Assembly: GCA_964635195.1 (NCBI GenBank)
Contig: CAZWNC010000002.1
Location: forward strand, 3,444 to 67,443
Length of the DNA: 64,000 nucleotides
Direction: 5' to 3'
Source of the DNA: an uncultured Candidatus Saccharibacteria bacterium
GTDB taxonomy: Bacteria; Patescibacteriota; Minisyncoccia; Phycocordibacterales; UBA12088
Below are positions 19,509 through 64,000 of this stretch, one piece after another (positions within the stretch are counted from its first letter, which is position 1; each line of letters starts with the position of its first letter). The notes beneath the pieces are model-generated. The model worked only from the letters and a program-made list of their open reading frames with translations. It did not search any database and was not told the DNA's origin. The translations under genes and the position numbers were made by a program.

Positions 19509-20192
19509 CTACAACAGATCATACACAAATTGATCGAACGCCATGGTGAGCGAATCACGCTGTGCGACAAAAGAGGTATAGTGCGCTTCAAGTTCCGCAT
19601 GACGTGTTTCGGCCTCCGTGGTAATCGCATTAATCGAGCGTTTATGTTCATCAGTCAACTCACCTCCGTCTTCGAGCACTCGTGTGATGATGGCGTACGT
19701 ATGCTCATGTGTTTCCGAAAGGTTAGCAATAATTCGTGCCGACGTTTCGGCACACGCGCGCGCAAGCGACACAAGATTGTGTGCCTGCTCGCGCGCACGC
19801 ATGCCCGTAAAAATACGTGACATGGTATCGAGATTTTGAATGTTTAAGTACAGTTCGTCTTGTGCGACCGCGGCGTCCGCTATTCCCTTCTGAATCGAAT
19901 CGAGATGCGTAAACGCGACACGCGCGAGTGCCTCACGCTCACCACTCGTTAGCGTGCCGGTCAGAATGTCTTGCAGCAACGCAAGGAGTTCACTTCTATC
20001 GGAGTTCTTTTCGGTACTGGGACTGTGTACGAGAGCTGCGACCCGCGTTGCCGACACGTCGTAGGTGCTGTACGCATCGATGAATCCTACGACACTCGAC
20101 CGCTCACCCTCAAACCCGCCATAGTAGAGCCACGCGTAGGCACCACCACCCCCAAGCATGAGTGCGCAGAGTAGTGTCAAAAAAATTCGCAT
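19509..20192 (-). CDS. Secreted or membrane-anchored hypothetical protein
   Basis: N-terminal MRIFLTLLCALMLGGGGAYA signal. It lies 50 nt downstream of the giant ORF on the same strand. Confidence 0.5.
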   Translation of the reverse strand: MRIFLTLLCALMLGGGGAYAWLYYGGFEGERSSVVGFIDAYSTYDVSATRVAALVHSPSTEKNSDRSELLALLQDILTGTLTSGEREALARVAFTHLDSIQKGIADAAVAQDELYLNIQNLDTMSRIFTGMRAREQAHNLVSLARACAETSARIIANLSETHEHTYAIITRVLEDGGELTDEHKRSINAITTEAETRHAELEAHYTSFVAQRDSLTMAFDQFVYDLL

Positions 20193-20241
20193 AGTACGTT
20201 GTTATCCTGTAAATGGGAGGTCTCTATGCCCCACGCACCAT

Positions 20242-23200
20242 CTAATCTCCTACCGCATAGAATGTTGTCTGCCCCCGATGTGTTGCTCCCGAAACACCGG
20301 TTGTAGGAATATAAATGCCCCAATACAACACGTCCGTCACCGGTGTTTCCGCCGCCATCGCCTTGGGCAGGTCAACCTCAAGCGTACTAGCGGTTCCTGA
20401 AAGTGCGCCACAAATGACACACGCGGAGTACGTAAATGAGGACGTGGAGAACTTTTGGTTGCCCACAGGAATGGTCGAGGCACCGCTTGTAAGATCCGTA
20501 CCCTCAAGCTCGAGATCGACCGCTATATTACCGGTATTCTGAATGGTCGAAGATGCGTTTGTTTGTGCCGTAGTGCTTGCACCCATCTCAAGCGCCCCAT
20601 ACGCAATATCACCACTCACAACTGACATGGCGAGCATGCTCCCCACCTCCGCACCGTCCGAGGTCGAACTTGCCTCATTCAAGGTATCGTCCATTATGAA
20701 CAGCCTCGCTTCCCATGTCTCAGCACTATAGTCTCCCCAATCGGTTGGATCGGCAAAGTACTGTATGTCTGCGGTGCAGGTCACTTCACACGTCGTACCT
20801 GAAGGTGCACACGTGAGCGGACACTCGAGTGAGTTTAGCTGGTAGCAATTATTTGGATTTGCAGCACAATCCGGACCGACGTCGGTTCTGTAGAAGGTCG
20901 AGGTGGCATAGAGAAGTGTTTCGCCTCCATTCAAATCAGACACGGTACCTGTTGCCACGATGGATGTCGTTTCACCCTCCATAAGCACGATCGGATTCGG
21001 ATCCATGACCGTCGAACCGTTGAATACCCATTCATTGATTTGTGGCCCATAATTTGCCGTCACTTCTGCAAGTGTCTGGTAGGAGTCAAGCTCAGAATCA
21101 CCATCAGAAACGCGCATGCAGTACGCATTGGATATGGCGTCTGCCGTCAACTCGACCGCGTACTCCACCTCGGTCGTGTATCCTTGCGGTAGAGTGGTCG
21201 AGGCGGTTTGATTACTATCGGCTTCAATGAGACGGCCGGCTGTGAACGGGAGGAGCGTAGTCGGTACCAAAAGCGCCTGTGTCTGACCTTGATCGACGTA
21301 CCCGGACGTTGTGGTCATACACACGGGACTGTCACTTCCCGCACATGCCGCCGACGTACCCGGTACAGTATCGAAGTTGACCGAGGGTACCGCATTACAG
21401 GTACCATACCCTGTCTTGTCCGCATACTGCAGTCGCCACTCTTTTCCCCATTCCTGTGGTCCGGAATTTTCTATGGAGAATCGTACCCGGAATGGTTGTC
21501 CCTGATCCACGGTCACTGAAGTATCCTGGGCCGCTTTCCAACTGGCACCCCCTTTCTCTTGCTCAAGCCCAACCCACACGGTGGGCTCATTCGCAAGGTA
21601 CGGTCGCGCCGTATAAAAATCCCAAGCTCCGTGTTGTGTCCAAAAGGAGAAGCCGGAACCACCTGCCGAAGTGTGCGAGAGATCACTTGCCGTTGTTGTT
21701 GCAAAGAGAGCGCCGACACTGTCGTACACCGATGCGTACAGTGTGCCACCGGAAAGCCAGTCCACCTCGACGGTATACCAACCACTAGTCCACGTGACCG
21801 TCGTACTTGCGAGGGTGAGTGCTGCCGTGGCGCGATTGGTCACATCTTCCGCGATTACCAATCGATCAGATGGATACTGTGTCAAACATACCGCGTAATT
21901 GGAGCCAGACCCACCGACTCCAAAGAGTGTACAGGGTTGATCCTCATAATTCTCATCCACATACTGCAAAAAACGAATGGTACTCCCTGGACCGAAGGTG
22001 GTCGTCGTTTGATACAGTCCACCGGTGGTAAAGTTTTCCTCTTGTCCCGATGCGGCATGGAGCGTGTATGCACCTTCGCCACCACTCTCCGCAATCGCAT
22101 CAAACTGAGTTGTGTTGCCGGTGTACCCTGTAAGGTCGTCATCCTCAAAATCATCAAAGAACGTAAACGTGTTCGAACCGCTTTCGGCATTTGCGGCGAA
22201 ATCATTGTCATAGTACAGGTATATGAATCCCGTATCGTTTGCCGAAACACTCGGAATCTTAACCCAAACCGTCGCGGTTGCTGCGGTATATGATTCGATG
22301 AAGTGCGGAAGTGAGGTGGTGCCGGAGTTATCGGTGAAGCGCAAGTCATTCCAACTCGTTTGCATGTCACCAACTTCGTACGCAACCTCAAATCGTACTG
22401 CGGTGTTTGTAAGTGCACCCGCGTTTGGATTCGTCACGTGCACGCGCTTGCGTTTATTCCAGTTGGAATCGTACCATTCACTATCGGGTGCCCCGTCCGT
22501 ACCATCATCATTCCTAAATCTGAAATGTGTCTGCGAAAACTCAAGACACGTGCTGTCGTCCCAACGAATGGAACCACAGGCATCGATACCATCATCATCA
22601 TATGCTTCACCATCTATTTCACCCATATGGTTTCGAAAATCCCAGAAATTCGCATTAGTCGACGTGCCGTTTCGTTTAATGTTCGCTACTCCTGAAACGC
22701 CCGTCGTAGTACCGAACCGTACGCTGGCGATTACCTTGGTCGGATTTTGATCGATGGTGGTCGAGGCGACCTGCAAAAGGTACCCACCGGATTCCGCCCG
22801 CTCAAAATCACCATACGAGAGTGAGGTCACGGTAAGTGCATTGGTCAGCACAAGGCCTGACGCATTTAGATTGCGGAACGAATAGTACTGGGCATTCAAG
22901 GTACCACCCGACTTAGCAAACGCGTAGGTACCCGTTCCTGCAACCGCAATCGTCGTGGTAGCCGACTCGGTACCGACAATTTCGAGTGTCCCTCCCGTAA
23001 ACGACAGTGATGAACTTGACGCGATGCGTACGTCCACCTGTCGCGACCCACCAATCGGTGCCCCTCCCTCAAAGTCGGTTGCATAGCTCCAGTAATCACT
23101 GCCGGTACTCCTTACGTACTCACCCCAGATAAACAGATCTCCGCTCGTGCCACCATGATCCATTGAATAGAGCGAGCCTGTCGAGGGCACCGTTGTGGTT

Positions 23201-26200
23201 GCAGCGGCACTATCCCACATGCGCACATCCGTATTCGCACCGAGAGTAAGGTACGCGTAGGTATCCCCACCCGTATTTCTCGTGTTTACCGTATAAGCGG
23301 TACCGGATGCGTTGAGGTACAGGGTACTGTTAGTCCAATCCGTCGTAGTGCTTGCAAACGCATTTTCAAAGACTCCACCCACTTCAAGCATGGTAGAACT
23401 TGCTAGTGTGAAAGATGCTCCTTGTTGCAAGCGCCACATGCCACTCGTGGTCGCACTGCCGGTCACTGTCCAGCCACCACCAACGCCTCGCAATACCACA
23501 TTCGAGAACAGTGAGCTGCTTGCCGTGATTGTCTGTCCGGTCGTGGTGGCATAGAGGTATAGGAGTCCCGCATTACTATTGAACGTGCCGGTATTCACGA
23601 ACGATCCACCGACCGCGAAGGTACCGGCAGGTGCGGTCAAGCCACCGGAAGAAATCGTCGTAGTGCCGGTGGTGGTTGCGTGGGTATCTGCAAACGCCCA
23701 TGAACCGGTACCTGCGATAGCGAGATGCCGAGCCGCTGACGCGCCAAAACGAAGCGTCTGGGTAGTGAGTGTCCCATACATGCGCAAGGTGCCACTATGG
23801 GAAAATGTTCCGCCTTGCGCACTGAAACCGTTCGCTATCGCAAACGTTCCGGAAGGTAGTGCGACGCTTCCTGCAGTGATCGATACTGAGCCGGTCGACG
23901 TCGCTTGCGTGTCGGTCATGGTATGTGCGCCGGCGCCTGCAAAGGTGAGTGACCCGACCGCATACCCCCCAAAGGCCACTGTTTGTGCCTGTGCGGAACT
24001 GAAGCGAATACTGGTCGAAGCTGCCGACATCGTAGCACTGTTCACAAAGGAACCACCGACCGAGAGGGTCGAGGTGCCGAGTGTGACATTTCCTGCACTG
24101 ATTGTGAAATGACGTGTCGTAGTCGCATCACGATCAGTAAAAGTCCACACACCACCCGACCCGTTGAACGTAAGGTTATTGAACGCACTGCTGTTAGGAC
24201 TCACGAGTTTGCCCGAAGTGGTCGCGGTAAAGGTAACGGTCGACGTGCCTGCGGTAAAGGTTGCCCCCGTGCCGGTAAGCCAGCTCCCGCCTATAGTGAT
24301 TGCCTGCGCCACTGTGGGCGACGATATGTACGACGCATTGTCGCGCAACTCAAGAGTACCATCATACTCAGTACCGGTACCCCCCGAGTTCAGAGTGACA
24401 TCACCGCCCGGAGTAAACGTTTTACCAGTCCACACAATGAGCTTGTGATTTGCAGATACGGTGAGCGTGTCTGAAACACCGTCGTTTGCATCAAAAGGTA
24501 TGTCTGTGTCGTCGCTCGAATCGTATGTTGCCATATGTGCGATTGTAACTGGGTTTACATCTTCATGCCGAACCACCACCCTGTTTTCGTAGAGGTGCAT
24601 GTCGGTAAGCGTGAGGACGGGATCTACCAGCACATGCGCCGCTTTTCCGGCAACACCATCCAGGTACACTGTCACAACCGAGACCGGCATGGAAATGTTT
24701 GTAAAGGAATATGCGCCGGTTCCGGGAGCACACGACGTAGTCTGTGGACTTACACCATCGAGCACCAACGTAACGACCGATGCGCCGGTGCAAAGACTTG
24801 ATACTGAGCCGGACTCATTACTGTAGACATTGCCGGATATGGTTATCTGCGAATTACTATCATCCCAGATAAGGTATCCGGGGTCTGGATCAGGAGCTGA
24901 GTCGCCGTCATGCATTTCTCCGTAGTAGTTGCCCAGCGCGGGAGTAAAGCGCCAGAAGCTGGTGCTCACGCCGGTTGTGGAGGCGTTGTACCCCGATGCA
25001 ATACCGGTCGAAGTTGCGAAGGAAATACGATCCCACCGTTTGATAGGGTTTGCAGAGATCACCGACCCCGCGACCGTCAGCATAGTACCGCCTTGTATGG
25101 AGAGTTCGAGATCGCCGTCCGAAAGCTGACTCACTGTTGGGCTTCCCGAAAACTCAAGACCTGTGGCGGATATATCACGAATCTTATAGTATTGTGCGTT
25201 GAATGTGCCACCGGTTACCCGAAGCGCATACGTTCCACCACCCTGTGTCGCGATACTTGTTGTCGACATCGTTGACGTACCGACGATGTTCCACGTACCA
25301 CCCGTAAGTGTGGTCGTAGCGTTTGGTGCCAACCGCACCTGTACGGTACGCGGACTTCCACCAAGTGCAGTGCCGTCAAAGTCGGTTTCGTACGACCAGT
25401 ACTCATTGCCACTTGCGCGCACATAGTCACCCCAAATGTACAGCGCACCGTCCTCACCATCATGATCTTGCGAGTACAGTGAGCCGGTACGATCGACCGT
25501 GTACACGGTCGAGGTTGAATTCCACATGTTCACATCGGTGTTCGCACCGACACGAAGTGTCCCATACACATCACCCCCCGCGGTCTTGGTGTTCATTGGG
25601 TATGCGGTGCCACTCTGGAGGTAGAGCGTCGAACCATCCCATGTGGTCGCACCTCCTCCCACTGTGTTCGTAAAGACCCCCTGGACACTGAGTGTGGTAC
25701 CGGAAGTTTGCGTATACGCCGCAGCTGAGGTCAGTAAGAAGTTTCCAGTCGTAGTTGCGCTACCGAGCATAGTCCACCCGCCACCCACGCCATTCAAAGT
25801 AAGATGATGGAACGACGATAGACCCGGGGTGATTGTCTTGCCGGTTTCAGTCGCATTAAAGACCACGCCACCACCGTTACTGGTGAAGGTACCCTGATTC
25901 ACGTACGAACCACCAATCAAAAGGTCATTGGTATTTGCGGCACTATAGGTTGCGTTTGCTCTGATCCACACCATGCCGGATACCGTCAAGAGCGGGTTAG
26001 ATGCCGTTACGTTCACTGTGACAGGGTTCGTACCGTTACCAACGGAAAGTGTCGCCGCGCTTGGTGTACCCCCGGACAACGTATAAGTCGGACTTCCCGC
26101 ACCACTTGGCGCAAGTACCAGATGATGATAGGCAAGTGCCGGAACGGTCATCGCACTCGTGCCGGCAAATGTCGTCGTAGACGTATTTGCGGTAAAGGTG

Positions 26201-40981: not shown

Positions 40982-40987
40982 TAATAC

Positions 40988-42502: not shown

Positions 42503-42519
42503 AGCAAGGAGCGAGTGAT

Positions 42520-53258: not shown

Positions 53259-54569
53259 CTATTGTTTTCCCTCGGAACGTACGTACTGAGTGACGCATGC
53301 AGCAATGGTCGCAAGCATGTCCTTGAACGTAGGCATATCCGGTTCAAGAAGTGTGAGTCGAAAACCATTGCGGTGACTATTCATGCCCGAAAGCGGCACC
53401 ACTGTGATACCGGTCGCACCCATCAGGTAGTACACGAAGCGCTTATCCTTAGCAACCTGCTGGGTCAGTGCCTCAATGCGTGCACGGACTGCAGAGTCGG
53501 CGATAGGTAATGTTTGCCCATTGGTCAAAACACCTTCCTGAAAAACCACCGACGCATAGAATGCTCCTTGCGGCTTGTTGACAATGAGGCCTGGCACCGC
53601 TTTAAAAGCCTCGGCAAAAAGATCGGCCTTTCTTCCGAATTCTAGAGCGATCTCACGAAGATGCGGCTGGTACCGAGCATCACTCATAATCCGAGGCAAC
53701 GCTTTTTGCGGGAGTGTGGTCGAACAGACCTCGAGCATCTTTGCGAGTACCAATGATTTAATATAGCGATCAAAGACCGGGTCGTTTTCTCTATTGTAGA
53801 CCTCTATCCACCCACACCGTGCACCCGGCCACGGCACTTCTTTGGAAAGTCCCTTGAATGCGATACCGGGAACAGTGCCGACGACCTGAGAAAGCGGCAC
53901 CATCGCTCCACCATAGACGATGTTACTGTATATCTCATCGCTCATGACAAAAAGATCATACCGTCGTGCGATATCGACCATACCAGCAAGTGTGTCGCGG
54001 GTATACACCGTACCGGTCGGATTGTCCGGATTGATGATCAGTATGCCACCTATCTCTGGATTGTACTTAACCTTATTCTCGATATCCGCAAGATCGGGCT
54101 GCCAGTGTCGTTCGGGCACAAGATCGTACGTCAAATGTCGTGCATCCGCATGTGCACCCTCCGCTGAAGAGTACGTCGGGTAGGCCGGATCCGGCCCAAG
54201 TATGCGACACCGGGGGTGCAAGTACAAAAAGGAAGTCTGTATCGCATCACCAAGGCCGTTGAAAAAAAGGATGTCGTCCGGGGTGATAGCAGCACCACCT
54301 TCCACATTGCGCATAGTGGCAATAAACTCTCGGGTTGTGAGTATGCCACGCGTTGGCGAGTAACCATACGAAGAATCATCGTGCTGAACCAAGTCCGCCA
54401 CGATATCTTTTATCCAGGGTGGTATTGTACGCCCTTTTGCGATCGGATCACCAATGTTTTCCCAGTATATAGGGACACCCATCCGCTTGAGCTCTTCACC
54501 TACCGCAACAATTTCACGAATCTCATAGGTGAGCTCGTCGGCACCCGGGTGTACGATGTCGTTTCGCAT
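53259..54569 (-). CDS. PLP-dependent aminotransferase class I/II (alanine-aminotransferase-like)
   Basis: 436 aa with N-terminal YEIREIV and the overall pattern of fold-type I aminotransferases. Confidence 0.8.
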   Translation of the reverse strand: MRNDIVHPGADELTYEIREIVAVGEELKRMGVPIYWENIGDPIAKGRTIPPWIKDIVADLVQHDDSSYGYSPTRGILTTREFIATMRNVEGGAAITPDDILFFNGLGDAIQTSFLYLHPRCRILGPDPAYPTYSSAEGAHADARHLTYDLVPERHWQPDLADIENKVKYNPEIGGILIINPDNPTGTVYTRDTLAGMVDIARRYDLFVMSDEIYSNIVYGGAMVPLSQVVGTVPGIAFKGLSKEVPWPGARCGWIEVYNRENDPVFDRYIKSLVLAKMLEVCSTTLPQKALPRIMSDARYQPHLREIALEFGRKADLFAEAFKAVPGLIVNKPQGAFYASVVFQEGVLTNGQTLPIADSAVRARIEALTQQVAKDKRFVYYLMGATGITVVPLSGMNSHRNGFRLTLLEPDMPTFKDMLATIAACVTQYVRSEGKQ

Positions 54570-54611: not shown

Positions 54612-54941
54612 TCACCCAGCCACTTCGGTATGCACCTCCTCGTACACCCTGCGCAGAGTAGCCGCCTCCTCGTTCACAAACCGATCGAAATCGGGAACGT
54701 GCTCTGCGAGAAATGAAAAAATAGCTTCCTGTTTCTCGGTACTTTCGGAATCTTCAGTACTCGCCTCAAAAAGGCCAAGCAACTTGTCCTGAGCGGTATA
54801 GTCAAGGGTATACCACACTCGCTGGATGACGCGAGAAAAGAGATGCTCACCTGTTTCCGCCAGGAGTTCTTCCCGTTCATCAACCGGAAGCGCGTCAAGG
54901 TTTATTTGCGAGCTTGGATTGAGCGAATCATGTTGTTCCAT
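54612..54941 (-). CDS. Acidic hypothetical protein
   Basis: 109 aa with no motif. It is tightly packed between flanking genes on the same strand. Confidence 0.35.
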   Translation of the reverse strand: MEQHDSLNPSSQINLDALPVDEREELLAETGEHLFSRVIQRVWYTLDYTAQDKLLGLFEASTEDSESTEKQEAIFSFLAEHVPDFDRFVNEEAATLRRVYEEVHTEVAG

Positions 54942-54961
54942 ACCTTCAATATTCTAAACTC

Positions 54962-57900
54962 TTAATGCTTTGTCTGCAGCGCCGCAATGTCACTCATCAA
55001 CTCACCCAGTGTTTCTCCACTCTTTGCCGCACGATCGATACAGTTTCCAATATCGACCCTTAGCTGTCCTTGCTCAGCAAATTGCACACGACTCAAGATG
55101 TCCTTCAGCACCTCCTCTGTATGTGAGGAAAAATTGATGGCGATTCCTCCGAGGTCGTACTGCAAACCCGGTGTCGGATCATACAGATCACCAACTTTGA
55201 GAAACGCAAGTGGTTCCCAGCTGTCTTTCAGGACCTGCGGAAGCGTTTCGGGCATCTCAGCTACTATCTTCGGGTTCTCAAATACGACCGACTGGAATGC
55301 CCCTTTTGTCAATTCAGGTAGTGAACCATCACGAGGAAATTCGCCTCCCGAATCAAGTAGGTGATCGACTTTTGCATCAAATCCCGCAAGCTCGCTTGTA
55401 ACCTGGTTTACGTAGGGAAAGTCTCCCCATGCGACCGTCTGTTGGTAGCGGTTCTTAAACGCTTCCACCTGGTCGACCTGTATGGGGCCGTCCGAGCTTT
55501 CCGGTACTTGTTGTGTACGTGGAGTGTCTTCACTTCCCTGTTGCGCAGTATGCGGCTCTTGCGTGTCACCGGTAGCCGGTGACGGTTCGTGTCCTTCTAC
55601 AGTATTCGGCGCATGGGTGGGAGCGCCTCCTTGCACACCACCGCTAGCCACAGACTCCTCGAGACCGTACTTTGCAGCATACTCATCGGGTACGGCAATA
55701 GTAAGGTGTGCGCCCGCGCGTATGTTATCGACATTCATTATCTCTTTACCATCCACGGTCGCCACGTGCGAATCGTTTTCCATACGTTCCAGAAGCACAC
55801 GTTGCGCCTCGGGAAGCTGCTCTGCGGAGACCCCCTCATTGGTAAGGTGCTCGCCAACGATACCTGAAAGTGTCACTCCTTCCGGTATGGTGAGCGACAC
55901 ATCGGCAGTGGCCGACAAAGGTGGACGCACCAGCGCATAGATTCGCTGCATGTGATCATCGGGAATGGAGAAATCAAATGCTTCCTTCGCGTATATTCTG
56001 TTCACGTCACCACCTTTCACCACACTATGGTCTTTTACATACTCGAGCATGTTCCCCACCACACGCATTTGCTCTCCTTTACTCAACTCTTTGTACCATG
56101 CGGTATCCTCCACAGATCGACGGAGCACACCCCACACTGTATCGCCTCGTGCAAATGTTCCCTCCGTGTGCACACCGGACACAAGATGCTCGGGGCTCAC
56201 AGGTGTGTCGGGCAACTGTTCTGCGGCATCAGGAGCAGTATCCACTGTCACAACGTCTTCATGGGGAGTGTCAGGTACTGTCAAGTCAGTATCCTGCCCA
56301 AACTTCACACGTGCTGCAGTGAGTCGTGCCTCCTCCATGTCCTTCGCATTGTTAGCAGACGCTTGCCCCTTCGCAAGCTCATCAGAGCTTGGTGTCTGGT
56401 CGATTGTAGGGATCGGCTCATGCGGGACTTCTCTCACAGTGGGTGCTGTATCTTTCGCGTCAATATCGCTCAATGGGTCTGGCAGCAATGTCGACAGCGG
56501 TTCCGGTATGACACCGACCTCAAAGGTCGGTGTGGAATCTGAAACAGGGGTTTGCAACACCTCGTCAATGAGTTGCTGAATATCGAGGGAATCCAACGAC
56601 TCATCCGGTGGTAGCACAACGGGTACTCCTTGCTCCGTGACCGACACCACGTCAGGCACAGCGGCCTCCTCCAGCACCGCAGTTCCAGTTGAAGCGCTCG
56701 GTGGCGTAGGTAGACCCTCCTCTCCAGGAAGTCCGATATGTTTATTGAAATCTTCCACAACCCCGAGAACACCCGGTGACACTTGTGGTAGGGGTGGGGT
56801 TTCTGCTACTGAAGAAACTCCATCAATTACGTCAACGCCGGCATCTAAGCCGGACTGGACAGCACTTGCAGCACCCGCACCCGTGGCATACGCTACCGCT
56901 CCCACAGCACCGATGGCAGCAACAGTCGTCGCGCCTTTTTTTACTCTTTCTGTTCGCTCAATCTTGTCAAGATCATTACGAAGCACTGATAGACGCATAG
57001 TGCCCGCCTCACCGGTAAGCCCCTCGAGCGCGAGATTTGTTTTTTGCTCAGTATCCTTTTTGATAACCTCATGTATCTTGGGTACCACTTTTCCAAACAC
57101 ACCTCCGGCTACGGCACTCGAAACACCCGTTGCAACAAGTTTTCGTCCTGCACCAATACCGCCCGCCGCAAGAATTGAAAGTGCCCCACCTCCTGCAAAC
57201 AGCGCAACCCCACCTGCAAGTGCCGCGCCGATTGCTACTTTTTGGGTAAGTGTTCTGCCTCCAAACCACTTACCGACTTTCGCCAAACGTGCGAGCGTAG
57301 GGTTTTCTTTCCCGCCCGTAGTTTCTTTGGCAGACTCGATTGCTTTTCTGTCCTCCATGGTCGTGAGGTACGCCGTAGCTATATAAAAAGCCTCCATTTT
57401 GGTTTCATCCAAAACACCTCCTCCTGAATCACGCTTCTTTGCACGCGATTCTACGAGAGCCTTGAGTGCACTCTTGCGCGCTTCAATGAGGTTCGCAGAC
57501 GTATCCAAGTACGTGTCATATTCCCGGAGCGCTTTCGTATATACCTCATCCTTTTGGTCAGGCTTCACCGTTTTAAGGAATTTGCTAAACATACCGCTCT
57601 GTGCACGATCTTCTGTACGTTCTTTGAGTTTTTCGAGAAAATGAACACGAGCGTGCGCTAGACGTTCCTTATTCTCAATATATGCAACGCGAGCCTGATG
57701 ATACCCCTCCAAAGATGCATCGGCCTCGCCCTTCTTAACAAGCTCCTGCACAACCGCAAGCTTCGCAACCGCCTTTGTTAGTGGTGCACTCTTCTCTTCC
57801 TCAATTTCCGCCACTTTTTCAGTGGGTGTACCTGCTTCAAGACTTCTGTCGAGTTGCGGCTTCTTGTAGTACATGTCGCGGACCTCCTGAAGCGCTATAC

Positions 57901-59011
57901 CCCGCAACTCGGCACGATGTGCCGTAAGCATATTTTTCTTCGCGTCACTCGGCACACCTTCATCCTTTTGCATCGCTTTTAACTGCCTCCGAACCTCCAC
58001 CCTGCGCTCCCCCAACTCCGTCCGAGGAGCGTTTTTCACCTGCAGAACATCCGCAGATTCGGGTGTGTGCACTGTGTCGGAACCCTGTTGCAACGAAGCC
58101 AAAATCTCTACCTCATTGCTTGTTTTACGTACATCGACATGCTGATGCTGTGTTACTTCAGAGGGGGTCATCTCCACCGCAGAAGCGACAGTCCCATGGC
58201 CCTGCGTGATTGACAATAAAGCACCTGACTCAGGTATGGACTGTTCCGCAAGGAGAAACTTTTCCCAGTTTTTCTGCGCTTCCGTGGTTCGCGCTGCGGC
58301 AGGAGATGGGGCCGGTTGTGCTGTGATCCCAATCTTCTGCACTTCCAAAGGCAGCGGTGCAATAGGAGGGCAGACGGCCTGCTTGTTCGTCACCTCCTCC
58401 GAACCTAATGTGCTGTCCGGTACCGGAACTGCTTTCCGGACAGTTACCGGAATGACGACTTCCTGTTTCTTTTGCTCAACAGGCTCCGTATCCTTCGCAC
58501 CCTCTTGCGGTACGTCCATCATACCCTGCAATCGCTCTTTAATAGTACGAGGCAGACTGACCTTTTCAAGCGCAACCGCAAGCTCCTTGCGTGCCGAATT
58601 GTCTCCCTTATTCATACGTCGACATATCGCACGAAGTTCCTCCAAACTTGCGATGAGCGACTCGCGTCCCACCACTTCAGTTCCGATTGTGAGATGTTCC
58701 TTTTTTTCTTGACCGAGCAAATCACACATATTCATCAACGACAGTCGCATGTCGTCATCCAGGATAGCCGCATTCAGTGTATACACTACTTCCTCCTCCG
58801 TGAGCGCAGTAACGTTATGTTCTTGATTGTTCGAACGTCTATTGTTTTGAAACCGATTGGGGGAACCGGATAGTGTCTGAACCTTTTCCAAAGTATGTGT
58901 TTCCTGCCTCAACTGCGACTTCGCGGACTGCATGCCTTGCTCATAAGGACGGAGCTGTACTCGATGGCTATCTGGTATCGGTACTGTTTCAGTTCTTCGC
59001 CCTTTAAACAT
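54962..59011 (-). CDS. Large (1,349 aa) hypothetical membrane protein with Gly/Ala-rich TM hairpins and long coiled-coil and acidic regions
   Basis: A central AIGAALAGGVALFAGGGALSILAAGGIGAG and a second AAIGAVGAVAYATGAGAASAV hydrophobic pair, with extensive K/E-rich helices. No catalytic motif. Confidence 0.55.
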   Translation of the reverse strand: MFKGRRTETVPIPDSHRVQLRPYEQGMQSAKSQLRQETHTLEKVQTLSGSPNRFQNNRRSNNQEHNVTALTEEEVVYTLNAAILDDDMRLSLMNMCDLLGQEKKEHLTIGTEVVGRESLIASLEELRAICRRMNKGDNSARKELAVALEKVSLPRTIKERLQGMMDVPQEGAKDTEPVEQKKQEVVIPVTVRKAVPVPDSTLGSEEVTNKQAVCPPIAPLPLEVQKIGITAQPAPSPAAARTTEAQKNWEKFLLAEQSIPESGALLSITQGHGTVASAVEMTPSEVTQHQHVDVRKTSNEVEILASLQQGSDTVHTPESADVLQVKNAPRTELGERRVEVRRQLKAMQKDEGVPSDAKKNMLTAHRAELRGIALQEVRDMYYKKPQLDRSLEAGTPTEKVAEIEEEKSAPLTKAVAKLAVVQELVKKGEADASLEGYHQARVAYIENKERLAHARVHFLEKLKERTEDRAQSGMFSKFLKTVKPDQKDEVYTKALREYDTYLDTSANLIEARKSALKALVESRAKKRDSGGGVLDETKMEAFYIATAYLTTMEDRKAIESAKETTGGKENPTLARLAKVGKWFGGRTLTQKVAIGAALAGGVALFAGGGALSILAAGGIGAGRKLVATGVSSAVAGGVFGKVVPKIHEVIKKDTEQKTNLALEGLTGEAGTMRLSVLRNDLDKIERTERVKKGATTVAAIGAVGAVAYATGAGAASAVQSGLDAGVDVIDGVSSVAETPPLPQVSPGVLGVVEDFNKHIGLPGEEGLPTPPSASTGTAVLEEAAVPDVVSVTEQGVPVVLPPDESLDSLDIQQLIDEVLQTPVSDSTPTFEVGVIPEPLSTLLPDPLSDIDAKDTAPTVREVPHEPIPTIDQTPSSDELAKGQASANNAKDMEEARLTAARVKFGQDTDLTVPDTPHEDVVTVDTAPDAAEQLPDTPVSPEHLVSGVHTEGTFARGDTVWGVLRRSVEDTAWYKELSKGEQMRVVGNMLEYVKDHSVVKGGDVNRIYAKEAFDFSIPDDHMQRIYALVRPPLSATADVSLTIPEGVTLSGIVGEHLTNEGVSAEQLPEAQRVLLERMENDSHVATVDGKEIMNVDNIRAGAHLTIAVPDEYAAKYGLEESVASGGVQGGAPTHAPNTVEGHEPSPATGDTQEPHTAQQGSEDTPRTQQVPESSDGPIQVDQVEAFKNRYQQTVAWGDFPYVNQVTSELAGFDAKVDHLLDSGGEFPRDGSLPELTKGAFQSVVFENPKIVAEMPETLPQVLKDSWEPLAFLKVGDLYDPTPGLQYDLGGIAINFSSHTEEVLKDILSRVQFAEQGQLRVDIGNCIDRAAKSGETLGELMSDIAALQTKH

Positions 59012-59112: not shown

Positions 59113-62100
59113 CTAGAATACTGGTACAACGATATACACCAGCTTACTCTCGTACAGACCTGCCGCTTGGCCGATATTTGCTCGAATGCGGTACACGATA
59201 TCAGTCGACTCCGCGGGAACAGGCCCGCCACTGTACGCCACCTCGGCAGCTGCATTGGAAAGAGCGGCAAACGTATCGGGCGCCAAAAAGCGTGTCGAAC
59301 CACCGGCGAGCGTGTTGTCCCCCGCATGGTAACCAAAGCAACTGGGAGCGAGCACTGCACATCCGCTACTCCAGCCTACCGGAGCGGCGTTGGTGCCGGT
59401 GATACCCTGTATGGTCTGGCCGGCACCTGCGGTCAACGGTTGTCGCTCGTAGGCGAACACCTGGTAGCCATTACTCGCATTGGTCGAAACCGTCAAACGC
59501 TGTGCGGCATTGAGGTCCGTCCCAAGGGAAAGAGACCCAAACGGAATAGAGAGTGCGGTCGTTGTAACGTCCATCACCACCCCTTCGGTCGAAGACCCGC
59601 TTGCAACACCACTTACCGTGAAAGTCACCTCACCGCTTGCAGACACAATCGACGGATAACTCCCGGGCACAGTCGAAGTACTGACCGGCGCGTCCGCGTT
59701 CACGTCATACACCCGGAAGTAGTAGACCTGCCCAACCGCAGCGTCCTTGTGCATCAACGTAAACTCATGTTCCTGTACCGCACCTGCAGGGAAAGAAACT
59801 CCGCTTGCGCCCCCACGATACAGAACGCCACTCGAGGTACCGAACGCAAAGTATCCCACCCCTTCATTTCCATGCGAACGCTCGCCATCATCTCGCTCAT
59901 CGATTGCAAAGAGAGTACTTTCACTCATGACCTCATCGTAGCGCACCCAACCACCCTCGGCACCATTGCGGGTCTGTTTACTTGCCACGAGACCCGGTAC
60001 ACGGGTAAACCAGTCGAAAGGAAACAGCTCTTGATACCACGGGGTGTTTGACCAACCCGAAACAACCACTCCGGTCGTCGTTGCGACGATAGGGGTACCG
60101 TTATTCTTGAACGCACCCCCCTCGATCGCCACCCAGCCATACGTTTCCGGCATCGTCGGCTCGTTTGTTTCGCCGTCGGGTACCTCCATTGAGCACGCGA
60201 AGTCGTTTGCTGTCACAAGCGCCTGCGACGCCGTGAGAAAGTCGGGGGTTCCCGTATTATTGTCTGTTTGGAGTGAGGTCAAGAGGATGGGTGCATCAGA
60301 GAATGTCTGCGTGAAGCTACAAGTATCGTCGGAAGCGCCTGAGACATCGCTCCCGTAGTAGTGCATGGTATCACGCGTTCCCACGTCCACACGCCTCCCG
60401 TCCGGCAAGAGGTGTGCTCCCCGTTCCATCACAACATACCCGACCGTCTCAGGTCCGTGTGAACCCACCTCATTGTCAGGCCGTATAATACGCACGGTCA
60501 CACTGTTCGTCGAAGTACCGGTAATACTTGCAACAGCCGGCCGATTACCTGCACCACCGCCACTATCGCCGGAAATAGCTTCGACGATAAACACCGGGTC
60601 ATCGTAGGTGTGCAAAAGTGAAATAGTGGTACCTGTGCCATCCACAGAAGTGGTGCCCACTTCTCCGATCACATCGGGCGAATACGTGTACTCGGTGTGT
60701 GTACCGCAGCCATCACCCACACCACCACTGCATGCATTGGCGGTAAGGACAACGTCTTGCACGGGCTCCCCTTCTTCACCCGCACCATTTGCCATACACC
60801 ACCGCGAGCCATACACACAGGTGTCTTGGTCGACCACATCGTACGCAACACTGAAATCAGACAGGGTCGAGTACTGGAGCTTGAACTTCACATTTGTCCC
60901 CGTTTTGCCCGCCACCTCAGCAAGGGTAACACGTAGCTTGAACACGTCACCCGGCCCCACTCCCGAAGGAGCCGTGTTCGTTGCAGCGAGGGGACTAACG
61001 GGAGTGAGTGATGTCTCGTCGTCAAAGAAACGCCAGTTGCCCTGTGTCACTTCGAAACCTGCCGTTGTAAGCGTTGGGTGGTAGGTGTACGTTGCAAACT
61101 CGCTCAAATCATCATTCACCATACGGAAACAGTACGCGGTCTTATCTGCCACACCGTTCGGGGTAAGCACCCAATCATACTCAACATCATCATTTATCCT
61201 CAGCTTGTAAGGATTCAATGATGTTCGTCCCGACTCCTCGTAGGTGCCCGCACGGTCCGCTACCGAAAGATTGAGATCGCCTCCGGTGGGGGGGTCGCCG
61301 GAGAGCGCTGTACCGGCAAGAGGTGAGGCGTTGTAACCGCGCCATATTGTGGTTGAAGCGCTGTCACCCACCTCATGCCATTCAGTGATGGCCCCGCACA
61401 CAGTAGTACGCACACCGTACTGTAGTCTAAAACGCTTCGTCTCACGCGAGACACTCGAGCCATGTACCAAAACGGACATGCGCAGACGCAATACGTCACC
61501 TTCGGTGGGAGGATCGTCGGAAAGTGTAATCGGCGCATATTCTCCCAAATTCCCCGCACCCGGTGGCCACGCGTCGGTGGGATCAAGCGCATCGTTGTTG
61601 TCGTACCATTGGTAAAAATTTTGTTCGAACGCAAGCTCGGCGGTCGGCCACTCCACCACTTCGGTCCGGTACGAACGAGCGGAACCGGTATCGGATATCC
61701 ACAATTCGTAGTGCGTCGTCGAGGCAATGGTCGCACCCATGATGGCTCGCGGGTGTGCAGTAGTGTTGCCGAGACCGATCATGTTCATAAAAATCGAGCT
61801 GTTCGAAAGTGCGGAAAGGGTGGTGCCAATCGGAATGGAATAAGTTGACGGTTCGACACCACCCGATGCTTGTGGGTTATTACTTCGCGTGACCTTCAGC
61901 GGACTCCCGTTCGTTTGGGTATTTTCGATCACCCACGCAACATGCACGTGGGTGTTCGCAGAGGCAGCGGTCGAAGGAATGTAGTACGACACCTGCCCCA
62001 CCGACGAAAGCCACACTTCGTGACCGAACTCATCAACCTGATTCACCCCAACACGCTTTTGAGTGTGTAGAAACGCGCGTGAAGCATCATTGACGGCCGT

Positions 62101-64000
62101 AATATTCTCCACCTCGGTGTTACCGGCGGTTGCGTGGGCGTGCTCCTTACGCTGTATCTTCCAGTTCGAGCCGGTAAATTCAACGACCGCATAACTCACG
62201 ACACTTGCAACCGATCCGGTGGTACCCCGCGTAAAAGTAGTGGTATCATCACCCGCATTCCACACAGCAGTGGAAATACCCGCATTGTAGTTTGTCGTAT
62301 TTGCAGCAGGGTTACGTTGTCCCGTGATGAACACCACAACATCCGCATCATCTACGACATCGGAAGCCGCTGACGTTGTTGCATAGAGCGACGTCGAAGT
62401 GTATGCGAGTGCTTCCTGCGCGCGGACCTTCATTTCATTGTCTCCGCCCGAAGGCCCAATATACTCCACAACCTCCCAGTACACACGCGTATTGTTTGTT
62501 GTCCCCGCTCGTGCAAATGTTACTCCGGTCATGAGGTCGCTCGGGTTCACGATGCTGACCGTTACATTACTCGCGTTTTGCGCACCACCACCACTGTTGG
62601 CACCCGCTCCCGTATACATGGCGTTCGTAATACGCACAAAGGCACTGGTGCTTGCTTTTGGTGCGACGTATTCGGCACCTGCGGTGATATTCACGGTAGA
62701 CGCGCCCGCTCCTATCGTACTTACTCCTCGTTGAATATAAAAATCCTGATTGGTGCGAACGGTCGCTTGTGGGTATGCATCATACGTTTCGAGCGGTGAG
62801 CCACCTGCCGTCAAACGGAAACAGTATGTCCCTCCGAACGCGGCATTTCCGGTCGGTTCAAGTGCATACTCAAGCTCGAGAAAATTCGTCGACAAAAGTG
62901 TGAGGGCTGAGGTCGTTGCAGTTGTATCGCGCACCCCGCCGTTTGGTGTCTTAAACGTTGTGTTTGAGTCGGTGACGCCACCCGTACCGACCCCAATGTT
63001 CGTCGTATCCGCACCATTAGTGAGGTAGGATGAGTCCGAGAGCGTCCATGCACCATTTACTGTTTCAATAGGTAACCATGCTCCTATCGCATCGCAGGTA
63101 CTTACCCGTTCAGCATACTCAAGCCCAAAAGAAGTGGGGAGACTTGGTGAGGAACCACCCTTTGATGCTTCGATGCGCAAGCGAATTGGCTCATTATGCA
63201 CCACACCGGATACGGGTGTGTCCTCAACCCCTCCCGTCGCTGAGGTGGCACCCGACTCACTTCCGTCGTCATTACGCCAGTGGTAGTGCGTCTGCGAGAT
63301 AAGTGCTTTCTCGATTGTGGTAGAACCGGTAATGGCAACTGGGGTGTTCGGATTGACCGTACCTGCGGACACCACCACTTCGCTACCCGGATTTGAAATT
63401 TCAACATCAATCGTGTCATTAGCAGATGCGCTCGTGTCCACATCAACAACCGCATACACACACATCGCGGACGTGGTCGAAATGCCAACCGAACCGCCAA
63501 AGTATGCCGAACCATCTGCACCCGAAAAGCTTGAGGAGGCGCTGCCGTACTGCGCTTCGTCACCACCATACGACACATCCGAACAATCGTACGGTGTCGT
63601 GGTACTCATCTCATACAAAAGGCGAACATTCGACAGATCGTTTTGCGCGTCCACCGACCCGTTCTCGGTAAGCGTGATGGCTGTCACGTTGCGTGAAGCC
63701 ACTTGATCCTCAATGAGGAACGCGCCACCAAGGTACTGACTGACCCCGGGCGACACAGCGGTTGTTGCTTGCGTTCCAACGGCGCTCACCATCACCGCCG
63801 CAGTCATCGTAGATTCACCATATATATTGTATGCAGGTAACGGGGTACCGGCATCCGTGACACGAAAACAGTAGGTCGTACCGTCGGTTGCTCCGGAGAG
63901 CGCCCGTATCGCATACTCGATCTCGACGAACTCCGTTTCGGCAAGCGTCACCCCTCCTGTCTGTGATGAGGTGTCCTTTACGGCGCCATTTGGTGTTTTG
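59113..64000 (-). CDS. Second giant modular surface protein, 5' end beyond the window (at least 1,628 aa visible)
   Basis: The frame is open from the window edge; the ORF-track start at 63951 is a GTG inside a longer open frame. It has repeated ~150-aa modules ([HF]Y.W(R).DDG ... LRLR ... LQY ... YCFR) that also occur in the 6,783-aa protein. Confidence 0.75.
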   Translation of the reverse strand, partial: KTPNGAVKDTSSQTGGVTLAETEFVEIEYAIRALSGATDGTTYCFRVTDAGTPLPAYNIYGESTMTAAVMVSAVGTQATTAVSPGVSQYLGGAFLIEDQVASRNVTAITLTENGSVDAQNDLSNVRLLYEMSTTTPYDCSDVSYGGDEAQYGSASSSFSGADGSAYFGGSVGISTTSAMCVYAVVDVDTSASANDTIDVEISNPGSEVVVSAGTVNPNTPVAITGSTTIEKALISQTHYHWRNDDGSESGATSATGGVEDTPVSGVVHNEPIRLRIEASKGGSSPSLPTSFGLEYAERVSTCDAIGAWLPIETVNGAWTLSDSSYLTNGADTTNIGVGTGGVTDSNTTFKTPNGGVRDTTATTSALTLLSTNFLELEYALEPTGNAAFGGTYCFRLTAGGSPLETYDAYPQATVRTNQDFYIQRGVSTIGAGASTVNITAGAEYVAPKASTSAFVRITNAMYTGAGANSGGGAQNASNVTVSIVNPSDLMTGVTFARAGTTNNTRVYWEVVEYIGPSGGDNEMKVRAQEALAYTSTSLYATTSAASDVVDDADVVVFITGQRNPAANTTNYNAGISTAVWNAGDDTTTFTRGTTGSVASVVSYAVVEFTGSNWKIQRKEHAHATAGNTEVENITAVNDASRAFLHTQKRVGVNQVDEFGHEVWLSSVGQVSYYIPSTAASANTHVHVAWVIENTQTNGSPLKVTRSNNPQASGGVEPSTYSIPIGTTLSALSNSSIFMNMIGLGNTTAHPRAIMGATIASTTHYELWISDTGSARSYRTEVVEWPTAELAFEQNFYQWYDNNDALDPTDAWPPGAGNLGEYAPITLSDDPPTEGDVLRLRMSVLVHGSSVSRETKRFRLQYGVRTTVCGAITEWHEVGDSASTTIWRGYNASPLAGTALSGDPPTGGDLNLSVADRAGTYEESGRTSLNPYKLRINDDVEYDWVLTPNGVADKTAYCFRMVNDDLSEFATYTYHPTLTTAGFEVTQGNWRFFDDETSLTPVSPLAATNTAPSGVGPGDVFKLRVTLAEVAGKTGTNVKFKLQYSTLSDFSVAYDVVDQDTCVYGSRWCMANGAGEEGEPVQDVVLTANACSGGVGDGCGTHTEYTYSPDVIGEVGTTSVDGTGTTISLLHTYDDPVFIVEAISGDSGGGAGNRPAVASITGTSTNSVTVRIIRPDNEVGSHGPETVGYVVMERGAHLLPDGRRVDVGTRDTMHYYGSDVSGASDDTCSFTQTFSDAPILLTSLQTDNNTGTPDFLTASQALVTANDFACSMEVPDGETNEPTMPETYGWVAIEGGAFKNNGTPIVATTTGVVVSGWSNTPWYQELFPFDWFTRVPGLVASKQTRNGAEGGWVRYDEVMSESTLFAIDERDDGERSHGNEGVGYFAFGTSSGVLYRGGASGVSFPAGAVQEHEFTLMHKDAAVGQVYYFRVYDVNADAPVSTSTVPGSYPSIVSASGEVTFTVSGVASGSSTEGVVMDVTTTALSIPFGSLSLGTDLNAAQRLTVSTNASNGYQVFAYERQPLTAGAGQTIQGITGTNAAPVGWSSGCAVLAPSCFGYHAGDNTLAGGSTRFLAPDTFAALSNAAAEVAYSGGPVPAESTDIVYRIRANIGQAAGLYESKLVYIVVPVF

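Follow-up and report, generated by a model that had tools for sequence, protein, structure and literature searches.

A gene cluster conserved across Patescibacteria encodes WxLIP-like membrane proteins and a candidate non-covalently assembled surface complex

Introduction

In the Csc clusters of Lactobacillales and Listeria, CscA corresponds to the WxLIP (DUF916 plus DUF3324), CscB to the small WxL protein, CscC to the large WxL protein and CscD to an LPXTG protein. A large part of bacterial diversity belongs to the Patescibacteria, whose cultivated members live attached to other cells. On the Paceibacteria/Parcubacteria side, we know of no attachment structure that has been tied to genes.

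The Firmicute WxL cluster has been defined as the association of a small WxL protein, a large WxL protein and a WxLIP (PMC10599100), and more than 91% of the known WxL proteins belong to Firmicutes (PMC9772566). Giant putative adhesins of the DUF2341/FhaB type have been pointed out in Patescibacterium danicum, and 82 further proteins of Patescibacteria belong to this class (PMC11809585). Our literature search returned no paper linking WxL or WxLIP to Patescibacteria, and the gene cluster presented here has not been described in this phylum. It was found in the window, i.e. the whole stretch of 64,000 nucleotides that was analyzed, which derives from a Patescibacteria genome of the Paceibacteria type.

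Results

From position 19509 to the end of the window, 16 consecutive ORFs (g1 to g16) are carried by the minus strand; in the first 19 kb, gene orientation switches repeatedly. Hydropathy analysis detected an N-terminal signal or anchor and/or a transmembrane (TM) segment in 11 of these genes (g1, g2, g3, g5 to g11 and g15). The ORF listing and the hydropathy data agree with a sequence-only reading made earlier on this DNA, which had counted 16 minus-strand genes from 19.5 kb onward, 11 of them with a signal peptide or TM segment. The two giant proteins that it announced are g2 (6,783 aa) and g16 (more than 1,628 aa), and its hsp20, M17 aminopeptidase and aminotransferase were recovered by matches to PF00011, PF00883 and PF00155, respectively. 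GC skew is uniformly negative over the whole window, and intergenic gaps of 163-394 bp occur within the cluster. Neither an LPXTG signal nor another covalent anchor was found near any C-terminus in the cluster.

A relative of g9 is encoded in at least 373 GTDB species genomes. The cluster was compared with 81 related Patescibacteria loci, in which tblastn segments were scored for strand and order. All homologous segments (548/548) were located on the strand of g9 and were essentially collinear with the window, and order and orientation persisted in remote members of the phylum, in which g9 identity falls to 34-40%. The homologues are therefore clustered and not scattered, and the gene cluster is real, with an order and a direction shared by hundreds of ultra-small Patescibacteria. 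Its conserved core consists of g16, g10, g9, g8, g7, g6 and g5, which are then followed in a subset of loci by g4, g3 and g2. g10 was present in 80 of the 81 loci. Long-form loci contain g7 (32/32) and g8 (31/32), both of which are absent from the short-form loci (n=28). In addition, g5 was found in every long-form locus having at least 7 kb downstream (28/28), and g6 (45096..45452, minus strand; longest ORF to 45623), a small protein in which two TM segments enclose a coiled coil, was detected 3' of g7 in 18 loci.

Three genes of the core encode membrane proteins of one family, designated WxLIP-like 1, 2 and 3. The first, g10 (49760..51115, minus strand; longest ORF reaching 51301), starts with a signal peptide and continues with a pair of Ig-like domains, one TM helix and a cytoplasmic tail. 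In the second, g9 (48390..49763, minus strand), a signal peptide precedes two beta-sandwich domains and two TM helices separated by a conserved basic cytoplasmic loop, and the third, g7 (45721..46944, minus strand), combines a pair of Ig-like domains with two TM helices at the C-terminus. g10 is paralogous to g7 and g9 (E 1e-32 and 1e-16, respectively), as is g7 to g9 (E 1e-41), and the family HMM matched g10 over aa 85-328 (E 1e-86). PF06030 was matched by 12 of 30 family members, with an E value of 0.025 for g7. When the whole PDB was searched with the family profile, EfmWxLIP1 was the top match (E 2.3e-5). Furthermore, hhalign comparison with six authentic DUF916+DUF3324 proteins gave probabilities of 97.4-97.8% and E values of 1e-11 to 1e-12 over both domains. 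The elements that define a full-length WxLIP (signal peptide, DUF916/PGBD, DUF3324/HBD and C-terminal TM; Hassan, Chaudhuri & Williamson 2023) are all present. The NQIDKxxxYFDLK motif at the start of the PGBD is absent; in the hhalign alignment, a gap stands opposite nQiD...sy and the following strand is kept. These comparisons show g10, g9 and g7 to be remote homologues of the Firmicute WxLIP.

The products of g8 and g16 have a C-terminal domain in common (C-dom). g8 (47023..48180, minus strand) encodes a secreted protein of 385 aa, very acidic and highly conserved, in which an N-terminal Ig/cohesin-like domain precedes the C-dom and which ends with DYTATLTYVATPVF; its predicted model is that of a complete two-domain protein (pLDDT 82). 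g16 (59113..64000, minus strand) encodes a large secreted modular protein. As its frame is open up to base 64000, g16 is truncated by the window and its N-terminus lies beyond it. Its C-dom corresponds to the last ~190 aa (59113-59691, minus strand) and was matched by the C-dom HMM at aa 1433-1612 (E 6e-63), and alignment of the g8 and g16 C-domains by hhalign gave an E value of 2e-70. The C-dom is always C-terminal and is joined to varying passenger regions of 440-2,500 aa. In 59 of 72 loci, a g16 homologue (440-2,500 aa) immediately precedes g10, and aa 722-963 of g16 form a module which is also present in g2. Per locus, C-dom genes and WxLIP-like genes are in a ratio of 1:2 in 35 loci and of 2:3 in 30 loci.

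The C-dom occupies the position of a WxL domain and terminates in a WxL-like motif, so that g8 and g16 are two C-dom proteins at the positions expected for WxL proteins. In the clusters delineated by Hassan, Chaudhuri & Williamson (2023), at least two PF13731 proteins are found within four genes of the WxLIP. Such proteins were not found here, and none of 33 g8 homologues matched PF13731 at E<=1. Comparison of the C-dom with authentic small or large WxL domains by hhalign was not significant (P 0.04-0.25); the positive control, small against large WxL, gave an E value of 6e-8. Likewise, the conserved strands LRVDTNAxNGFxVTV and DYTATLTYVATPVF depart from the WxL motif rule, as they contain F-x-V and Y-x-A, with the R/D displaced by one position. 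The terminal strand resembles the authentic WxL sequences YTTTLTWNLGATP and LKATINYQLYNTP, and the second W is replaced by Y in some authentic WxL proteins too; this likeness of motif is suggestive only. As the likeness between the C-dom and authentic WxL domains falls short of significance, an interaction between WxLIP-like proteins and the C-dom would be proposed by analogy and not from homology shown for both partners. Thus, of the Csc/WxL-like cassette put forward by the sequence-only reading, the CscA/WxLIP-like half was confirmed; the WxL-like half consists of an architecture and a terminal motif, with a similarity that is not significant.

If the WxLIP-like proteins acted as PapD-like chaperones or platforms, g8 could be the major subunit of a donor-strand-complemented filament, comparable to chaperone-usher pilins or to TasA-like fibres, with g16 as the tip adhesin. 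We consider such a fibre quite unlikely. In structure, g9 is matched best by WxLIP and not by a chaperone, the match to TasA-like proteins is weak, and the complete g8 model is not obviously strand-deficient. Moreover, the cluster contains no usher, sortase or SipW-type peptidase, and the set that makes up a chaperone-usher system (PapD-like periplasmic chaperone, outer-membrane usher and strand-lacking pilins) was not found in it.

Cryo-TEM has revealed S-layer-like envelopes on CPR cells, and the proteins of these envelopes have, to our knowledge, not been identified. g8 is conserved, acidic and constant in size and has no anchor of its own, which would fit a two-dimensional lattice of g8 tied to the membrane by the WxLIP-like proteins, the large proteins being embedded in this coat as spikes. 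In that case, about one third of the sampled loci (the 28 short-form loci, devoid of g8 and g7) would belong to lineages lacking the lattice protein. Furthermore, profile searches revealed neither an SLH domain nor any known S-layer domain, and a coat of this kind appears very improbable.

Downstream of g6, g5 (43178..45064, minus strand) encodes a secreted protein made of an Ig domain, a Gly/Ser linker, a Big_13 domain (33.5 bits) and a probable C-terminal dockerin. The dockerin scored 22.7 bits against PF00404, just under the cut-off of 22.9, and E 4e-4 against the NCBIfam dockerin_GC profile, below its cut-off. Two canonical D-x-D/N-x-D-G loops, DLDCDGFVNLVDF and DINGDGLVSLPDF, could be read in it. 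Short-form loci are also accompanied by a dockerin protein, which passes the cut-off with 31.6 bits in L045. In g3 (40988..42505, minus strand; longest ORF reaching 42697), a signal peptide is followed by a cohesin and an Ig-like domain, and then by a TM helix (placed by hydropathy at aa 404-422 of the trimmed protein) and a cytoplasmic coiled coil. Its cohesin (aa 120-219 of the long ORF) scored 30.0 bits against PF00963, for a cut-off of 24.1. Cohesin and dockerin partners had been claimed from the sequence; the g3 cohesin, above cut-off, upholds this claim, and the g5 dockerin, marginally below it, is compatible with the claim through its two canonical loops. Between them, g4 (42520..43014, minus strand) encodes an Hsp20 without signal peptide (PF00011, 40 bits). 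This intermediate position is retained in 11 loci; the cohesin gene was found in 13 loci in total, 3' of hsp20 in 11 of them.

The giant surface protein g2 (ORF 20242..40593, minus strand; N-terminal TM 26-44) begins with a signal/anchor, after which come an acidic region, a series of Ig-like repeats and two super-repeats of ~1,150 aa. These are followed by three Thr/Gly/Ser-rich super-repeats of ~800 aa, a DUF2341 domain (70 bits) and C-terminal Ig-like modules. A match to Ig_Rha78A-like was weak and sub-threshold, with no significant stretch, and the C-dom HMM indicated that the g2 C-terminus is not a C-dom. Segments homologous to g2 were found downstream of the cohesin gene in 6 loci.

The presence of both a cohesin and a probable dockerin could point to a cellulosome-like complex for the capture or degradation of polysaccharides, and Lactobacillus Csc clusters were reportedly first proposed for carbohydrate utilisation (PMC1534035). 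In a cellulosome, a multi-cohesin scaffoldin receives dockerin-bearing enzymes. Here, a single cohesin and no such scaffoldin were found, and profile searches of the 16 proteins returned no family of glycoside hydrolases, lyases, esterases or CBMs. We regard this explanation as extremely improbable. The polysaccharide-capture machine of the sequence-only reading is without support, because no carbohydrate-active enzyme domain was found in the 16 proteins.

The remaining genes have a narrower distribution. Between g16 and g10, g11, g14 and g15 form a clade-specific insert. g15 (54962..59011, minus strand) is a fast-evolving protein of 1,349 aa with a central Gly/Ala-rich hydrophobic region (hydrophobic segment 596-614, by hydropathy) and without Pfam or NCBIfam match. 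Its positional homologues in L004, L006, L007 and L010 count 977-1,632 aa and are ~25% identical, and at the same position L009 has an ORF of 1,477 aa with no detectable similarity. g14 (54612..54941, minus strand), a small acidic cytoplasmic protein present in 7 close loci, matched DUF5663 (PF18908) weakly (E 0.0013, below cut-off). g11 (51177..51767, minus strand) is a small polytopic membrane protein with at least three hydrophobic segments, located immediately upstream of g10 in 9 close loci. It had been read as polyprenol-kinase-like. Neither g11 nor six orthologues matched a Pfam or NCBIfam family, and its assignment as a polyprenol/dolichol kinase has no support. By eye, a kinase resemblance at the motif level can be seen (AD..AALVG...G.H.Y...RTxEGS).

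The M17 leucyl aminopeptidase g12 (pepA; 51768..53162, minus strand; PF00883, 362 bits) occurs in only 7 loci and the class I/II aminotransferase g13 (53259..54569, minus strand; PF00155, 126 bits) in only 5 close relatives. Both are lineage-specific passengers and are not part of the conserved machine. g11, g14, g15 and g1 are probably outside it as well; none of the 81 loci has a homologue of g1 (19509..20192, minus strand), a small coiled-coil protein anchored at its N-terminus (TM 3-21). In this way, the idea that the whole 44 kb forms one unit had to be given up, since pepA and the aminotransferase are confined to close relatives, g11, g14 and g15 are clade-specific and g1 is not conserved.

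A mosaic origin could explain such a distribution. Only the C-dom and WxLIP-like cassette would then be functional, the other genes being independent envelope or housekeeping genes kept adjacent and in one direction by replication-strand bias and by the rarity of rearrangements in very small genomes. In favour of this explanation, pepA and the aminotransferase are clearly gained or lost among loci, the gaps between genes suggest several transcription units, and the negative GC skew extends over the window. In L001, AhpC, MFS and gyrB, and not a cohesin gene, come after the dockerin gene. Of the 25 long-form loci with 10 kb downstream, only 11 have hsp20, cohesin and the giant gene within that distance, which also counts against the explanation that we favour, as does the fact that streamlined genomes keep gene order for non-functional reasons too. 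On the other hand, g5 comes after g7/g6 in each of the 28 long-form loci mentioned above, a dockerin protein flanks short-form loci too, the order of hsp20, cohesin and giant gene is unchanged in L027, L044, L063 and L065, where g9 identity is 35-40%, and the neighbouring 19 kb of the window are of mixed orientation. A mosaic is regarded as unlikely.

Discussion

On balance, the cluster is probably a phylum-wide conserved gene set for a non-covalently assembled cell-surface complex, a variant of the WxL/Csc type to which a candidate cohesin-dockerin pair and giant adhesins are added. The core of the sequence-only reading, that of a coherent and undescribed surface apparatus, survives in this form, with order and orientation kept at low g9 identity. 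We infer an attachment function for this complex, and attachment to a host is plausible.

Given the signal peptides, every component except Hsp20 would be exported by Sec. g10, g9 and g7 would be held in the membrane by their C-terminal TM helices, with their two Ig-like domains exposed. g16 and g8, which have no anchor of their own, may be captured at the surface by the WxLIP-like proteins through their shared C-terminal beta-domain. Beta-strand complementation, as predicted for WxLIP-WxL, would be the likely means, the fold resembling that of PapD-type chaperones. This capture step is deduced from the fold, from gene adjacency and from the strict co-occurrence of 'C-dom gene, WxLIP-like, WxLIP-like' and of 'g8, g7'. 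From module co-occurrence, the candidate pairs are g7 with g8, and g10/g9 with g16. In parallel, the dockerin of g5 would bind the membrane-anchored cohesin of g3. The variable N-terminal parts of g16, together with g2, would point outward as adhesins, most plausibly towards a host cell or substrate.

A bolder proposal, which we advance tentatively, is that of an unrecognised phylum-wide envelope apparatus of Paceibacteria-type Patescibacteria. The WxLIP/PapD-like proteins would assemble or tether the abundant g8 and the lineage-variable giant adhesins, and the cohesin-dockerin link and the conserved cytoplasmic segments would couple them to the cell interior. If true, this apparatus would underlie, in structural terms, host attachment or the enigmatic surface layer of the largest radiation of uncultivated bacteria, and would have a common ancient origin with the Firmicute WxL system.

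The cluster offers a defined and testable gene set, found in at least 373 species-level genomes, whose proteins are now all annotated 'hypothetical', and links it to WxLIP, a protein family whose structure was solved recently. In this way, a principle of surface anchoring that was considered nearly confined to Bacilli is extended to a very distant phylum. The 'WxL' partner may be replaced by, or have diverged into, a domain missed by current profiles, which matters for surface-proteome annotation.

Compared with the chaperones of chaperone-usher systems (PapD/FimC/CsuC), the present proteins are membrane-anchored in a cell without outer membrane or usher and show no sequence similarity to them, WxLIP being the better match. 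As in cohesin-dockerin systems, a cohesin (g3) is anchored in the membrane and a probable dockerin with two Ca-binding loops ends g5, two genes apart; however, there is a single cohesin, no scaffoldin, no enzyme-borne dockerin or CAZyme module, and hsp20 lies between the partners. Like the giants of the DUF2341/FhaB type, g2 exceeds 4,000 aa and contains DUF2341, but it closes a conserved multi-gene cluster which is not described in PMC11809585.

From the WxL/Csc systems, the locus differs by a C-dom that is not detectably PF13731, with F-x-V and Y-x-A instead of W-x-L, and by the number of WxLIP paralogues, which is two or three in each locus where one is usual. NQIDKxxxYFDLK is missing from these paralogues, two of which, g9 and g7, possess a further TM helix and a conserved cytoplasmic loop. 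In the 'small' protein, an Ig/cohesin-like domain is added at the N-terminus. The locus has no LPXTG protein or sortase, and the conserved small neighbour g6, of TM/coiled-coil/TM type, is not the small LPXTG protein (CscD) of the csc cluster (Siezen 2006); the phylum, too, is another one, Patescibacteria. In both, nevertheless, the genes are all co-directional, membrane-anchored proteins with two Ig-like domains adjoin one small and one large secreted protein with a common C-terminal domain, and the anchors of the present locus are remote WxLIP homologues over both domains, followed by a TM helix.

Gene content of the minus-strand island

Sixteen consecutive minus-strand ORFs, numbered g16 to g1 along transcription, fill the window from position 19,509 onwards. 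The reading frame of g16, which encodes a large secreted protein, was open up to base 64,000, and this gene is therefore truncated by the window. The first 19 kb contain housekeeping genes of mixed orientation (GAPDH, RNase J, CorA, FtsI, RsmH, MraZ, RelA/SpoT, ABC-F, ROK kinase and others) and an IS element. This element (17714-18791), compact and apparently intact, is located about 700 bp past the downstream end of the island; it is bounded by terminal inverted repeats of 25 nt (17714-17738 and 18767-18791; 96% complementary) and encodes on the plus strand a transposase of 337 aa (17763-18776) with an IS30-type HTH_38 domain. A plus-strand ORF of 178 aa (18883-19419), situated between this element and the island, matched no family, but its signal peptide is clear (MQKFFVSLALLCSVFTAAEAA), so that the bias towards envelope proteins reaches slightly past the co-directional block. 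No tRNA or Rfam family was detected within the window, and a consensus scan for promoters and terminators was uninformative, with fewer promoter-like sites than in shuffled sequences.

A hydropathy scan revealed an N-terminal signal or anchor and/or transmembrane (TM) segments in g1, g2, g3, g5, g6, g7, g8, g9, g10, g11 and g15, the same number of proteins, 11, as had been counted in the sequence-only reading. Pfam searches identified a cohesin in g3 (30.0 bits, cut-off 24.1), Hsp20 in g4, an M17 aminopeptidase (pepA) in g12, a class I/II aminotransferase in g13 and DUF2341 in the 6,783-aa g2 protein. The g5 product was a borderline dockerin (22.7 bits, cut-off 22.9), in which two canonical Ca-binding loops were seen in the sequence. 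The same searches gave no significant family match for g7 to g10, g15 and g16, and an LPXTG-type sorting signal was present in no island protein. The proposal that g11 encodes a polyprenol kinase was abandoned, since neither Pfam nor NCBIfam profiles supported it for g11 itself or for six orthologues. A cellulosome-like glycan machine, an extremely improbable reading, was rejected for lack of enzymes, none having been found.

Several island proteins are related to one another. The g7, g9 and g10 products are mutually paralogous (about 30% identity, E-values from 1e-41 to 1e-14), and the final ~190 residues of g8, a 385-aa secreted protein, and g16 form one and the same domain (C-dom; blastp E 1e-6, profile-profile E 2e-70). 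In addition, a module of ~240 aa is common to g16 and g2, the latter being built of nested super-repeats; HMM and hhalign comparisons ruled out that g2 ends in C-dom.

Conservation of the gene order and extent of the unit

More than 900 homologues of g9 were retrieved, all of them unnamed Patescibacteria proteins without Pfam domains, together with 879 homologues of g8 of nearly constant length. Beyond near-identical genomes, the closest relatives of g8 were ~62% identical, versus ~50-55% for g9. When one genome per GTDB species was scanned, g9 relatives were encoded at 373 loci, 80 of which, plus one metagenomic contig, were analyzed with flanks of up to 10 kb on each side. Three of these loci (L049, L076 and L080) carry the cluster, yet their MAG records are labelled Patiriisocius, Azotimanducaceae and Acidimicrobiales; these labels probably reflect binning contamination rather than a real occurrence outside Patescibacteria. 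Many other loci are labelled 'uncultured Candidatus Saccharibacteria', even though the nearest relatives with a name are, for these, Paceibacteria/Parcubacteria.

The comparison of gene order suggested in the sequence-only reading was carried out by searching the 81 loci by tblastn with all 16 proteins of the window. None of the 548 resulting segments was on the opposite strand, and their order was that of the window, with cross-hits of shared modules as the sole exceptions. Two forms of the cluster were observed. The long form (48 loci) comprises a C-dom protein followed by g10, g9, g8, g7, optionally the small TM protein g6, and the dockerin protein g5; where the flank was sufficient, g7 was found in 32/32 loci, g8 in 31/32 and g5 in 28/28. 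Among the 25 long-form loci having 10 kb downstream, 11 continued with hsp20 and then the cohesin gene, an arrangement also kept where g9 is merely 35-40% identical, and g2-like segments followed the cohesin gene in six of these 11. The short form (28 loci) consists of a small dockerin protein, a ~540-aa protein, a ~2,050-aa C-dom protein, a g10-like and a g9-like protein, and then housekeeping genes.

The hsp20 gene of the window (42520-43014) encodes a cytoplasmic protein without signal peptide. In 11 loci that are only distantly related (L002, L003, L006, L007, L010, L011, L027, L033, L044, L063 and L065), its place is fixed between the dockerin gene and the cohesin gene, which is odd within an otherwise extracytoplasmic cluster.

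An HMM census gave ratios of C-dom genes to WxLIP-like genes (the g7, g9 and g10 type) of 1:2 in 35 loci, 2:3 in 30, 1:3 in eight, where the upstream gene was out of range, and 3:3 in two. The locus forms and this census thus define two building blocks, namely a C-dom protein gene followed by two WxLIP-like genes, and an optional g8-g7 pair. Since the upstream C-dom proteins range from 440 to 2,500 aa, C-dom is a portable C-terminal module. In L008, L027 and L044, the g8-type gene is present in two tandem copies ahead of g7; L027 and L044 are the two 3:3 loci.

Within the cluster, the pepA and aminotransferase genes (51768-54569) were confined to the window and to its closest relatives (both in L002, L003 and L008-L010; pepA alone in L011 and L025), a distribution that marks these metabolic genes as recently inserted. 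Between g16 and g10, g11, g14 and the fast-evolving g15 form a clade-specific insert, and no homologue of g1, a small anchored coiled-coil protein, was found in the 81 loci. The coherent unit is therefore g16, g10-g5 and, optionally, g4-g2, rather than the whole 44-kb island; pepA, the aminotransferase, g11, g14, g15 and g1 lie outside it. A mosaic, made of a small cassette and unrelated envelope genes, is an unlikely description of this locus.

Relationship of g7, g9 and g10 to WxLIP proteins

The Pfam family WxLIP_PGBD (PF06030) was matched by 12 of 30 family members (best E 6e-6), and by g7 with an E-value of 0.025. Searched separately, the g8 and g9 family profiles and g7 alone retrieved nothing useful from PDB sequences. 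Only after 24 diverse ectodomains, drawn from all three paralogue families, had been merged into one profile was EfmWxLIP1 reached; it gave the top two matches among all PDB sequences (E 2.3e-5). Finally, an hhalign comparison with six authentic DUF916+DUF3324 proteins, encoded on Lactobacillales plasmids, yielded probabilities of 97.4-97.8% (E 1e-11 to 1e-12), the alignment spanning both domains in 225 columns. On the basis of these sequence matches, g7, g9 and g10 are regarded as remote WxLIP homologues. In PDB entry 9i25, which has several chains, EfmWxLIP1 is chain C; this hints that a complex, perhaps with a WxL protein as partner, has already been determined experimentally.

In the AF2 model of g9 (pLDDT 80.6), a signal helix precedes two beta-sandwich domains, which are followed by a long TM helix, a basic loop and a second TM helix; the sequence matches agree with this architecture. 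The loop is disordered in the model, yet conserved in sequence: in aa 316-413 of g9 (gene at 48390-49763), W316, R319, Y321, R323, R324, P372, D379-L380-R381, Y407, F410, F411 and F413 are invariant or near-invariant among 30 homologues. This conservation suggests a cytoplasmic interaction that Firmicute WxLIPs lack.

The C-terminal domain of g8 and g16

C-dom, whose terminal residues are DYTATLTYVATPVF, was compared with authentic WxL C-termini, including YTTTLTWNLGATP, FKGTLSWTLTSAP and LKATINYQLYNTP. None of 33 g8 homologues matched PF13731. Whereas the literal W-x-L motifs characterize WxL domains, their counterparts in C-dom are F-x-V and Y-x-A. Alignment by hhalign with authentic small and large WxL families gave P values of 0.04-0.25, the aligned part being either the terminal strand or the region of the first motif, versus an E-value of 6e-8 when authentic small and large WxL were aligned with each other as a positive control. 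The g8 model (pLDDT 81.6) shows two beta-sandwich domains, and Foldseek matched it in the PDB only to generic two-Ig-domain adhesins and integrins (TM ~0.2), which offers no basis for a family assignment. As homology to WxL is not demonstrable from these sequences, C-dom was classed as a functional analogue of WxL or, at most, an unproven and very distant relative.

The signal-peptide region of g8 (aa 13-40; gene at 47023-48180) is unusually conserved (…LALLAW..GLP.W…A.A|A), as is the mature N-terminus that follows (DTLSDSDLG.xA.H.I.F). These features could point to a donor strand or to a specialised processing step. A donor-strand fibre composed of g8 subunits is quite improbable.

Proposed assembly and comparison with known systems

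Export signals are present in the cluster; the WxLIP-like and cohesin proteins are membrane-anchored, g8, g16 and g5 are devoid of any anchor, C-dom is a portable domain common to several proteins, and the modules strictly co-occur. An S-layer is a very unlikely interpretation of this set. In the surface complex favoured here, C-dom would be captured by the WxLIP-like ectodomains, by analogy with the predicted WxLIP strand insertion into WxL and with PapD-like chaperones. The g7 protein would serve g8, g10/g9 would serve the large protein, the g5 dockerin would bind the g3 cohesin, and g16 and g2 may act as adhesins through their long N-terminal regions. Epibiotic growth in Saccharibacteria was found to depend on a dockerin-domain protein (PMC10633639), and Patescibacteria have giant DUF2341 proteins that were noted as possible adhesins (PMC11809585); the cluster is described in neither paper. 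A function in attachment is plausible.

Literature searches combining WxL, dockerin, cohesin or DUF2341 with Patescibacteria or CPR returned no description of the cluster, and no paper tying Patescibacteria to WxL or WxLIP was found; Firmicutes account for more than 91% of known WxL proteins (PMC9772566). The Firmicute cluster encodes one WxLIP, a small WxL and a large WxL protein, the WxL domain being always C-terminal (PMC10599100, PMC9772566), and the Patescibacteria layout mirrors this arrangement. However, two or three WxLIP-like paralogues are present at each Patescibacteria locus, g7, g9 and g10 lack the NQIDKxxxYFDLK motif of Firmicute WxLIP, and g9 and g7 differ from it by a second TM helix and a conserved cytoplasmic loop. 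The system is of a known kind, a WxL/Csc-type non-covalent surface complex combined with cohesin-dockerin. Its new features are its occurrence in the phylum Patescibacteria, a WxL partner domain that has been replaced or has diverged extremely, WxLIP-like anchors that have been multiplied and elaborated, and a fixed link to a dockerin protein, to which many lineages add hsp20, a cohesin anchor and a giant protein.
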